From the IMG/VR virus record IMGVR_UViG_3300026382_000007: 64,000 bases of DNA; one strand, 5' to 3'. This DNA comes from a virus (lineage: Duplodnaviria > Heunggongvirae > Uroviricota > Caudoviricetes). The translations under genes and the position numbers were made by a program. Positions 27,377 through 29,473 of this stretch are shown in pieces; position 1 is the first letter of the stretch, and every line of letters begins with the position of its first letter. The notes under the pieces are model-generated. The model was not told the DNA's origin and did not search any database. It saw only the letters and a list, made by a program, of their open reading frames with translations.

Positions 27377-27575
27377 ATAGTAACTTAAAACAAAGGCTGT
27401 ATTCTTTTTAGAATGTCCAGCTTGCGGAAACACTTATAACTATTTCGAAACTGAATATGAAGTTTTTGATATGTGTAGTTGTCGTGAAGATAGAATGACT
27501 CCAGTCATCATGTCTGAAGACGGATCACCTGAATATGATGGTGAAAAAAATTGACTTTTTTACGGAGGCTGTAAA

Positions 27576-27768: not shown

Positions 27769-29190
27769 ATGAGAACACTAGAGCATATTAATGTGAAATA
27801 CTTCAAATATGCTTGTGATGAAATCGGTAAAGAAACTCCAGTTGACATTAATGCGAAGTGTATAATTTGTGGGGACTCCGATAAGGACAAGCGACAAAAA
27901 AGGCTTCACCTCTATACAAAAGCGAACTATGATGGTGATGCTATTAAATGTTTCAATTGTGAGTGGACTGGAAATATGTTTAGTTTCCTGAGAGAAGTTG
28001 ACTCAAGTTTATTCGAACTTTATAAAAAAGAAACTCGTGAAAAAAGTTTCAACAACCTTAAACGAAAACATCACGAAAAGAAGGAGTACAATGATGCAGC
28101 AATCCAGATGGGATCGTACAAGAGAAAGGCGAGAACAGAATCGGGAACGAGCAAAGCGGACGGAGTATATGGATCTGATAGCAAAACAGAAACTGGAGGA
28201 AGCGATGAAAGCTTCAGTCAGAACAATGGGTATAGTGAGGGTGAAATAGATGAGACCAATAGCGGAAGATCTGGACGGGATTTGCAAATTCATAGCGGAA
28301 AGGAACCACAACGACTTGATGAGAACGATGGGGGCCAGGGAGTCAATGTTGGACGGAAGCGAAATTACAGTTTCAGTATGTCAGGTTTCGCAGGAGCAAA
28401 TGGGGTTGAACTTGAAGAAAGCGGTACAACAAATGCGGTCTCAAATGAGCCCATACGAGAAAGTGAAAGTGGATCTAATGGGACTGACAACGAACATCAA
28501 ACCTCTGATGATAAAGTCAAAGGATTGGGAAAGCTCCCAGATGATGTATTCGAGATGCCTGACGAATTCAGACCAGCATGCGAATCAGCTGATGCCGTTG
28601 GTTATTTGCGAGGTCGTGGATTAGATCCTGAGTTTTATTACTACTCACCCGACTGGATAAACTTCAACGGAAAAAGTATGCCATTGAAACATGCTATTAT
28701 TGTTCCATTATGGGTTCTCAAAGATGACAATGTAATGTACGGTTTTCAAGCTAGACATATTGACACTAAGTTCTTCTACACTTACATCCCTGAGGAAAAT
28801 ACGGGATTCAAAGTTTGGAATTGGTATAATATCGATAAGTCAAAACCTACTTTCATATTCGAGTCGGTATTTGATGCTGAGTCAAGTGGTTTGCCTCAAG
28901 ATCGTATTTGTGCTGCTCTCGGGGCTGATCTAAATGATGAAAGACTTGCGGAGTTGTTCGAACCAATATTTTGTTTTGACAATCAACGGTATGATGAAAC
29001 ATCTCGTATTAAGACCGTTAAATTATTAAAACGAGGCTTTAGGTGTTTCGTTTGGGACAAGCAGATTCAGTACAAGGATACTAATGATGCGATACAAGGC
29101 GGTTTACCAAAACCTGATATGGCTAAATATATTTTAAGTCATCTTGAGACTGGTATGACCGGAATCATTAAAACAAAATTAAAGAGGTAA
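27769..29190 (+). CDS. 61: DNA primase (gp61-like) with a ~145-aa low-complexity insertion
   Basis: Zn finger CIICGDS..RLHLY..KCFNC, GYLRGRGL, IIVPL, GFQAR, TOPRIM FIFESVFDA, FCFDN, YKDTND; AAGGC SD before ATG 27769. Confidence 0.9.
   Translation: MRTLEHINVKYFKYACDEIGKETPVDINAKCIICGDSDKDKRQKRLHLYTKANYDGDAIKCFNCEWTGNMFSFLREVDSSLFELYKKETREKSFNNLKRKHHEKKEYNDAAIQMGSYKRKARTESGTSKADGVYGSDSKTETGGSDESFSQNNGYSEGEIDETNSGRSGRDLQIHSGKEPQRLDENDGGQGVNVGRKRNYSFSMSGFAGANGVELEESGTTNAVSNEPIRESESGSNGTDNEHQTSDDKVKGLGKLPDDVFEMPDEFRPACESADAVGYLRGRGLDPEFYYYSPDWINFNGKSMPLKHAIIVPLWVLKDDNVMYGFQARHIDTKFFYTYIPEENTGFKVWNWYNIDKSKPTFIFESVFDAESSGLPQDRICAALGADLNDERLAELFEPIFCFDNQRYDETSRIKTVKLLKRGFRCFVWDKQIQYKDTNDAIQGGLPKPDMAKYILSHLETGMTGIIKTKLKR
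28091..28249 (+). CDS. candidate overprinted small basic protein nested in the primase (+1 frame)
   Basis: AAGGAG SD at 28081; helical-looking RWDRTRERREQNRERAKRTEYMDLIAK. Confidence 0.5.
   Translation: MMQQSRWDRTRERREQNRERAKRTEYMDLIAKQKLEEAMKASVRTMGIVRVK
28250..28624 (+). CDS. candidate overprinted protein nested in the primase (+1 frame)
   Basis: ATG directly follows the TAG of the nested upstream ORF; GAGGGTG SD-like sequence. Confidence 0.45.
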   Translation: MRPIAEDLDGICKFIAERNHNDLMRTMGARESMLDGSEITVSVCQVSQEQMGLNLKKAVQQMRSQMSPYEKVKVDLMGLTTNIKPLMIKSKDWESSQMMYSRCLTNSDQHANQLMPLVICEVVD

Positions 29191-29191
29191 C

Positions 29192-29308
29192 ATGGAACAG
29201 TCGGAACTCACATACGGAGAAGTCCAAGAAGCTAGAAAGCGGATGGCGGAAGAAGCTAGAAAGCGGATGGCGGAAGAAGCTAAAAAAGAGGTTGTGACTT
29301 ATGCCTAG
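29192..29308 (+). CDS. 38-aa peptide with a 24-bp repeat (EEARKRMA)
   Basis: GAGGT SD; repeat gaagaagctagaaagcggatggcg. Confidence 0.4.
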   Translation: MEQSELTYGEVQEARKRMAEEARKRMAEEAKKEVVTYA

Positions 29309-29473
29309 ATTAAAAGGTTGGATTATCACGATGTGGCTGAATATGTCATCGGTAGGAGTAGGGGTGTCAAAACCAGTCAGCACTTTATATGATATGAGTG
29401 CAGAAAGTTCAGCGGACGACATGGGTTTGGTACAGAATATCCACCCTACACAGTTCATGAACAATTTTTAGCA

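Follow-up and report, generated by a model that had tools for sequence, protein, structure and literature searches.

Genes that lie inside another gene in a shifted reading frame have been described in several systems. In the double-stranded DNA (dsDNA) phage lambda, Rz1 is contained entirely in Rz, which it overlaps in the +1 frame of the same strand, and both frames are translated; Rz1, a lipoprotein that has a signal peptide and a lipobox, belongs to the lysis cassette and acts together with its partner. In Bacillus subtilis, comS encodes a 46-residue regulatory peptide, whose partner is MecA, out of frame inside srfA-B, with which it is co-transcribed. In phiX174 (E in D; K; B in A) and MS2 (L), genes that arose de novo in a shifted frame give orphan products of unusual composition in tiny genomes under size pressure; the overprinted genes of small phages have been reviewed (PMC8227390). 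Long same-strand overlaps are rarely recognised in large dsDNA phages because gene callers forbid them. Here we describe a candidate for such an overlap, two consecutive open reading frames (ORFs) in the +1 frame, ORF1 (28091–28249) and ORF2 (28250–28624), inside the DNA primase gene (27769–29190) of a 64,000-nucleotide stretch from a virus of the Caudoviricetes (IMG/VR record IMGVR_UViG_3300026382_000007), which we call the window; these and all features below are on the + strand unless noted. From the pattern of substitutions among relatives, we consider it likely that the DNA of the primase linker is read in two frames, as a tether of the primase in frame 0 and as a lineage-specific orphan gene, led by a Shine–Dalgarno (SD) sequence and born by overprinting, in frame +1.

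As with Rz1, ORF1 and ORF2 are fully enclosed by a longer gene of their dsDNA phage, sharing its strand and using its +1 frame, but the host is a replication gene and the host frame appears neutral with respect to sequence. Neither ORF has a signal peptide or lipobox; their N-terminal sequences (MMQQSRWDRTRE and MRPIAEDLDGICKF) carry charges and lack a hydrophobic signal, unlike those of an Rz1-type spanin. As with phiX174 and MS2, the product would be an orphan of unusual composition from a gene arising de novo in a shifted frame, here in a phage genome of at least 150 kb and in an expanded interdomain linker rather than in a tiny genome. What it shares with comS is a small ORF set out of frame within a large gene for housekeeping or biosynthesis; comS differs in being bacterial and in having a known partner. 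Nesting in the +1 frame is already known in phages, and what would be new here is the ORF1/ORF2 protein and its location in a primase; no description of an overlapping gene inside a phage primase was found in the literature searched.

A described counterpart of the host protein is the T4 primase gp61, which likewise has a CHC2 zinc-binding domain, a flexible linker and a Toprim RNA-polymerase domain. Its linker, Lys97–Lys115 (~19 residues), is a disordered loop that has been proposed to limit primer length, and it accepted inserts of as many as 5 residues (the longest tried) with effects that were only subtle (PMC10187150). The window primase is a gp61-type protein of 473 residues (ATG at 27769, TAA at 29190) with a zinc-binding domain, a long linker and a catalytic Toprim/RPD domain. 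It differs from gp61 in that the linker is ~170 residues long, and in that this linker would also code in another frame. In frame 0 it comprises residues ~95–262 (28051–28554) and is acidic, hydrophilic, variable in length, free of stops and apparently unconstrained in amino acid sequence.

Selection on the two frames of the linker

Long-linker primases found by protein search are P0002 (81% identity), P0003, P0004, P0006 and P0007, together with many short-linker ones. The relatives' DNA loci used here are L002–L008, L013, L014 and L016–L021, and WIN denotes the window phage. ORF1 is present in six lineages, WIN, L002, L004, L005, L008 and L013, five of which have a long linker and one a short linker. 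The pair L001 and L004, differing by one substitution, was uninformative.

The distribution of differences over codon positions changes at the linker. When WIN is compared with L002, differences in the flanking domains amount to 0.43 per site at position 3 against 0.03–0.15 at positions 1 and 2, whereas the linker shows the opposite order, with 0.139, 0.121 and 0.079 per site at positions 1, 2 and 3 (23, 20 and 13 differences). Values of omega calculated by the Nei–Gojobori method (NG86) follow the same course. In the flanks omega is 0.07–0.13 in frame 0 and ~2 in frame +1; in the linker block it is 1.07–2.3 in frame 0 and 0.17–0.34 in frame +1. For WIN and L002 the linker values are 1.07 (frame 0) and 0.34 (+1), and for WIN and L005 the +1 values are 0.33 over ORF1 and 0.17 over the C-terminus of ORF2, with frame 0 at 1.7–2.1. 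We also used a permutation test, in which each observed substitution was moved to another site with the same base (5000 permutations). Amino acid changes fell in 26 codons of the +1 frame against 40.1 ± 3.2 expected, and none of the 5000 permutations gave a count as low. The controls behaved differently: frame 0 gave 39 against 40.0, frame +2 gave 36 against 39.9, and the catalytic domain showed the opposite pattern. On frame-independent alignments the z values for the +1 frame were −4.8, −5.0 and −6.3 for the pairs among WIN, L002 and L005, and −2.9 for L004 and L005.

Ratios that take the overlap into account were calculated following the logic of OLGenie (PMC7531306). In the +1 frame dNN/dNS for WIN and L002 is 0.30 (confidence interval (CI) 0.16–0.52), and over ORF1 the two differ by ~0.5 NN against 8.5 NS differences. 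For the initial 41 ORF1 codons, taken across the six lineages, the ratio is 0.50 (CI 0.38–0.65), at a dNS of 0.78. ORF2 alone gives 0.47 between WIN and L002 (CI 0.26–0.91, P = 0.013), and its C-terminus 0.26 between WIN and L005 (CI 0.11–0.54). Over the same stretches the frame-0 ratio, dNN/dSN, is 0.87–1.77. In the catalytic domain, used as a control, the +1 ratio is 1.27–1.36 and that of frame 0 is 0.26. A sliding window places the +1 signal at primase residues ~91–258. By these measures of substitution the +1 frame is under purifying selection (bootstrap P < 0.001), while the primase frame is neutral (~1.0) in the linker.

Frame 0 is nevertheless kept open. When codons were drawn at random among synonymous ones given the +1 proteins, 12–18 stops were expected in frame 0 of the five long-linker lineages and ~7 in that of the short-linker one; none is found in any of the six (P < 1/3000 each), and the third frame of the same lineages has 5–23 stops. 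The primase is therefore read through and its openness selected. On this comparison frame 0 is open by selection while its amino acid sequence drifts, which matches a flexible tether. The proposal of true dual coding made in the initial annotation of the window gains support both from the substitution pattern in relatives and from this selection for an open frame 0.

Signals, gene structure and host gene

The SD sequence of ORF1, AAGGAG, lies at 28081–28086 and keeps the same spacing to a conserved ATG in all six lineages. ORF1 encodes 52 residues from the ATG at 28091 or 51 from the conserved ATG at 28094, and ends with a TAG at 28247–28249. It is basic and Arg-rich (pI 10.9, charge +6.5), and its AlphaFold2 model is a single long helix (residues 5–47) with a predicted local distance difference test score (pLDDT) of 84.6, a confident prediction of a basic single helix. 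The ATG of ORF2 at 28250 abuts the TAG of ORF1, an SD-like GAGGGTG lies upstream at 28236–28242, and the 124-residue frame ends with a TAG at 28622–28624; its last ~30 codons run into the conserved beginning of the catalytic domain of the primase. The linker, the SD sequences and the starts, stops and lengths of the two ORFs are all present as first annotated. The codon-model scores of ORF1 and ORF2 are −0.04 and −0.09 against −0.57 ± 0.15 for ordinary +1 off-frames, and those of both frames fall between real genes and ordinary off-frames.

In the relatives the SD is AGGAG or AGGAA, the same kind as that used by genuine genes of the window. The ORF1-bearing lineages form one clade on the primase tree (Shimodaira–Hasegawa-like approximate likelihood ratio test (SH-aLRT) 100), and the SD, the ATG and an open +1 ORF are kept in 6 of the 7 members of this clade, to which the gene is restricted. 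With the ATG at 28094 as anchor, ORF1 gives a gap-free alignment of 40 codons across the six lineages and begins M-x-[QK]-S-[RK]-W-[ED]-R-x-R-[EK]-R. In most pairs its identity is higher in the +1 frame than in frame 0 (0.97 against 0.78, 0.54 against 0.38, 0.51 against 0.35 and 0.49 against 0.33). ORF1 is found even in a 378-residue primase with a short linker, and its start falls inside an ancestral primase motif. The seventh member, a 426-residue long-linker primase (L007:172–1452), is interrupted in the +1 frame by four stops and lacks the conserved ATG; it seems to have lost the nested gene while keeping the long linker. The outgroups L014 and L016–L021 are without the nested gene. In L014 the gene directly 3′ of the primase (L014:2079–2534) carries in its precomputed annotation the Pfam family Tad5 (PF25190), an anti-defence family.

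The division into two ORFs is not general. In L005, L008 and L013 there is a single unbroken +1 ORF of 165, 125 and 79 codons, respectively, which ends at a shared stop over the G-L-D codons of the primase; in WIN, L002 and L004 a TAG is followed by an ATG after 0–3 nucleotides in the +1 frame. Since the ORF is continuous in three of the six lineages, we read ORF1 and ORF2 as the halves of a single functional unit rather than as the two separate genes first proposed.

We propose that frame 0 would be translated as part of the primase, giving a long, acidic, disordered tether selected for openness and hydrophilicity and not for sequence. Ribosomes would also enter the primase mRNA internally at AAGGAG (28081–28086) and initiate at the ATG at 28094, or possibly 28091, to give ORF1 of 51 residues. 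They would stop at the TAG at 28247–28249 and restart at the abutting ATG at 28250 to give ORF2 of 124 residues, such that in the window phage the two parts would probably be coupled by termination and reinitiation. A search for an internal promoter gave nothing exceeding chance. Recoding of the TAG as a route to an ORF1–ORF2 fusion was rejected; TAG ends 12 of the 43 genes in the window, and no tRNA is found there.

The assignment of the host gene is supported by a PHROGs profile search, in which residues 255–443 match PHROG_47 ‘DNA primase’ (E = 2.2e-31), and by a search with the window primase using tblastn, in which gp61-type primases were matched in 687 phage records; the closest, at 28–35% identity, are those of Vibrio phage Va1 and Campylobacter phages. 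These proteins are ~330 residues long and align in two pieces, between which the window primase has ~150–170 extra residues. The match to Zn_ribbon_DnaG is weak (E = 0.039, under the Pfam cut-off); the metal ligands C31, C34, C61 and C64 are invariant in an alignment across 13 relatives. The window comes from the genome of a large T4-like phage; almost all genes lie on the + strand, and replication genes surround the primase. The same sequence is found in independent JGI, ENA and Logan assemblies, and an assembly error is therefore excluded. Just 3′ of the primase, a 38-codon ORF (29194–29310) contains a 24-nucleotide unit, GAAGAAGCTAGAAAGCGGATGGCG, repeated 2.6 times in tandem (29225–29288).

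Linker length varies from ~0 to 170 residues across the aligned relatives and the long form is lineage-specific. In the window the frame-0 linker is of low complexity and rich in G, S, E, N, D and K (pI 5.0, GRAVY −1.36), and its DNA is purine-rich, with a GC content of 46% against ~36% around it and only 17.6% T. The atypical codon usage first noted here holds for GGA (65% against 24% in the genes of the window), AGC (33% against 6%) and GCG (43% against 13%), but ACG is ordinary (11% against 10%). CGA is also enriched (44% against 13%), and GCT (0% against 50%) and CGT (0% against 28%) are depleted. A candidate short linear motif, RKRNYSFSMSGF (28354–28389), lies in the frame-0 linker, and strings resembling [KR][KR]..Y.[FIV]..S[GD][FG] occur at differing positions in all six long-linker primases (YSFANISGG, YAVDLSGF, YNISMSGF and YKINFSDF in the relatives). 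This is weak evidence, gathered by eye, and suggests that frame 0 may not be wholly passive.

Alternative explanations

One alternative is that the +1 ORFs are not translated and arise only because the linker is hydrophilic and its DNA poor in T, and that the substitution pattern comes from a recent recombination tract together with small-sample noise, or from a nucleotide-level constraint on the third positions of the primase codons. Several observations favour this alternative or otherwise count against dual coding. The length of the ORFs is no more than chance would give: when the primase codons were resampled synonymously, the mean longest +1 run was 120 codons and the probability of one of at least 124 was 0.34. 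A long run is expected because a +1 stop needs a T at position 2 of a primase codon, which is rare in a hydrophilic linker. The short-linker primase gene of L014 (L014:906–2072) is a natural control, with an open +1 run of ~215 codons over linker and catalytic domain that is unlike ORF1 or ORF2; long +1 ORFs in such primase genes can be meaningless. In purine-rich DNA neither an open frame nor an SD-like string is proof of coding, and the argument from ORF length and SD alone is insufficient. Both ORFs are orphans. ORF2, near-neutral and mostly helical, is of odd composition (9.7% Met, 3.2% Cys) and its AlphaFold2 model (pLDDT 47.5) is too poor for a structure search. Over ORF1 the pairs with L004 show the two frames at parity in identity, and between WIN and L002 the final ~40 codons of ORF2 are without a +1 signal. 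L007 has lost the +1 ORF, and the gene is therefore dispensable in L007. The data come from only ~6 lineages, with the strongest signal from WIN, L002 and L005, and the pairs are non-independent.

Recombination belongs on the same side. The same samples (JGI 3300026488, ERZ27262635) yielded both WIN and L002, and the identity of the 3129-nucleotide L002 contig to the window between 27400 and 30600 is a mosaic, 98–100% at 27400–27550, ~72% at 27850–27950, 92–99% at 28100–28350, ~40–50% at 29200–29400 and 86–98% beyond 30138, so that near-identical tracts other than that in the linker are present. This suggests frequent recombination between co-occurring relatives. At synonymous sites of the flanks WIN is as distant from L002 as from L004 or L005, and the near-identity of WIN and L002 in the linker block is probably a recent recombination tract; its low synonymous divergence is therefore no argument for selection.

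Recombination does not, however, account for the frame-specific pattern of substitution. It lowers divergence but cannot make the third positions of the primase codons the least variable, nor can it make +1-synonymous changes 2–4 times commoner than +1-nonsynonymous ones. The signal recurs in divergent, saturated comparisons, as in ORF1 over the six lineages at the dNS of 0.78 given above, that is, beyond the young tract, and frame +2 and the catalytic domain act as negative controls. A constraint at the nucleotide level is opposed by the search for an RNA element; no Rfam family is matched and folding is no better than in shuffled sequences (z = 0.03). We therefore regard an origin of the pattern as a by-product as unlikely. 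A 100-residue antisense ORF (28009–28311, − strand) lies codon-for-codon opposite frame 0 and so could imitate some of the signal; the possibility that selection really acts on this ORF was considered separately. It was rejected, the ORF being open only in WIN and L002 and interrupted by stops in L004, L005 and L008; the purine richness of the strand probably accounts for it.

A second alternative, close to the inserted two-gene module of the initial annotation, is that a pre-existing and possibly mobile two-gene cassette was inserted in frame, spreads by recombination between co-infecting phages and is shielded from deletion by the essential gene. The GC-richness of the block noted above would fit this, as would its near-identity in two co-occurring phages whose flanks are synonymously saturated, and the mosaic nature of its middle part, of which WIN and L002 have one type and L004 and L005 another. 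Searches for a copy of the cassette elsewhere, free-standing or relocated, found none. Outside primase linkers ORF1 and ORF2 have no match in 50,697 phage records (tblastn) or in IMG/VR, and in JGI metagenomes only the already known L003 was found. No homologue was found in an index of 5.8 billion proteins, and a profile search run exhaustively over 1.84 billion representatives gave 0 matches. There is no family in Pfam (none at E ≤ 1, the TnpV family included), PHROGs or NCBIfam, and no match among PDB sequences; shorter fragments of the primase used as queries gave no homologue of either ORF, and in the ESM Atlas recognition was below the mark. Nor does the locus carry the machinery of a mobile element, since no nuclease or integrase domain and no intein or homing-endonuclease feature (Hint, HNH, GIY-YIG, LAGLIDADG) was matched in the primase, ORF1 or ORF2 using Pfam, PHROGs and NCBIfam. 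ORF1 begins in the ancestral primase motif and exists in the short-linker primase, and recombination tracts are found all along the locus, beyond the linker block. Insertion of a ready-made cassette seems to us improbable.

The remaining alternative, ribosomal or transcriptional slippage at an A6G run (28024–28030) to give a fusion of the zinc finger to ORF1 with no independent start, is very hard to sustain, for although the +1 frame is open from just past the zinc-binding domain through ORF1 in WIN (from 27992), L002 and L005, and the run lies within TATAAAAAAGA (28021–28031) at the left edge of the tract nearly identical to L002, there are +1 stops between the run and the conserved ATG in L004, L008 and L013, and SD and ATG are kept in all six lineages.

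Origin, putative function and wider meaning

The evidence on origin points to birth in place, by overprinting and growth of the linker, as a better fit than an inserted module, because no homologue was found outside these primase linkers in the collections searched and because the composition of ORF2 is like that of an off-frame. As to function, a tentative suggestion is that the product could be a small cytoplasmic protein binding nucleic acid or the replisome, made with the early or middle replication proteins and acting via the Arg-rich N-terminal helix; this is a possibility that we would rate below an even chance. A bolder scheme, and a doubtful one, is that the linker is a gene nursery, in which selection for the +1 protein would have grown the linker from ~20 to ~170 residues. 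The nested protein would then be a built-in regulator of the primosome or of replication, coupled stoichiometrically to the primase, and its lodging in an essential gene would hinder deletion and ease spread by homologous recombination between co-infecting phages.

If the linker is indeed read in two frames, the usual hierarchy is inverted at this locus, in that the sequence constraint would lie on the unannotated frame, with the annotated essential gene supplying only a frame that is open and hydrophilic. The tether of the primase, ~9 times longer than that of T4, whose linker has been proposed to limit primer length, raises the question of primer length in this phage. Dual coding would also mean a new orphan protein family tied to phage replication genes. 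More generally, disordered interdomain linkers could be birthplaces of new genes, and the long ‘low-complexity inserts’ of phage enzymes may hide real ones.

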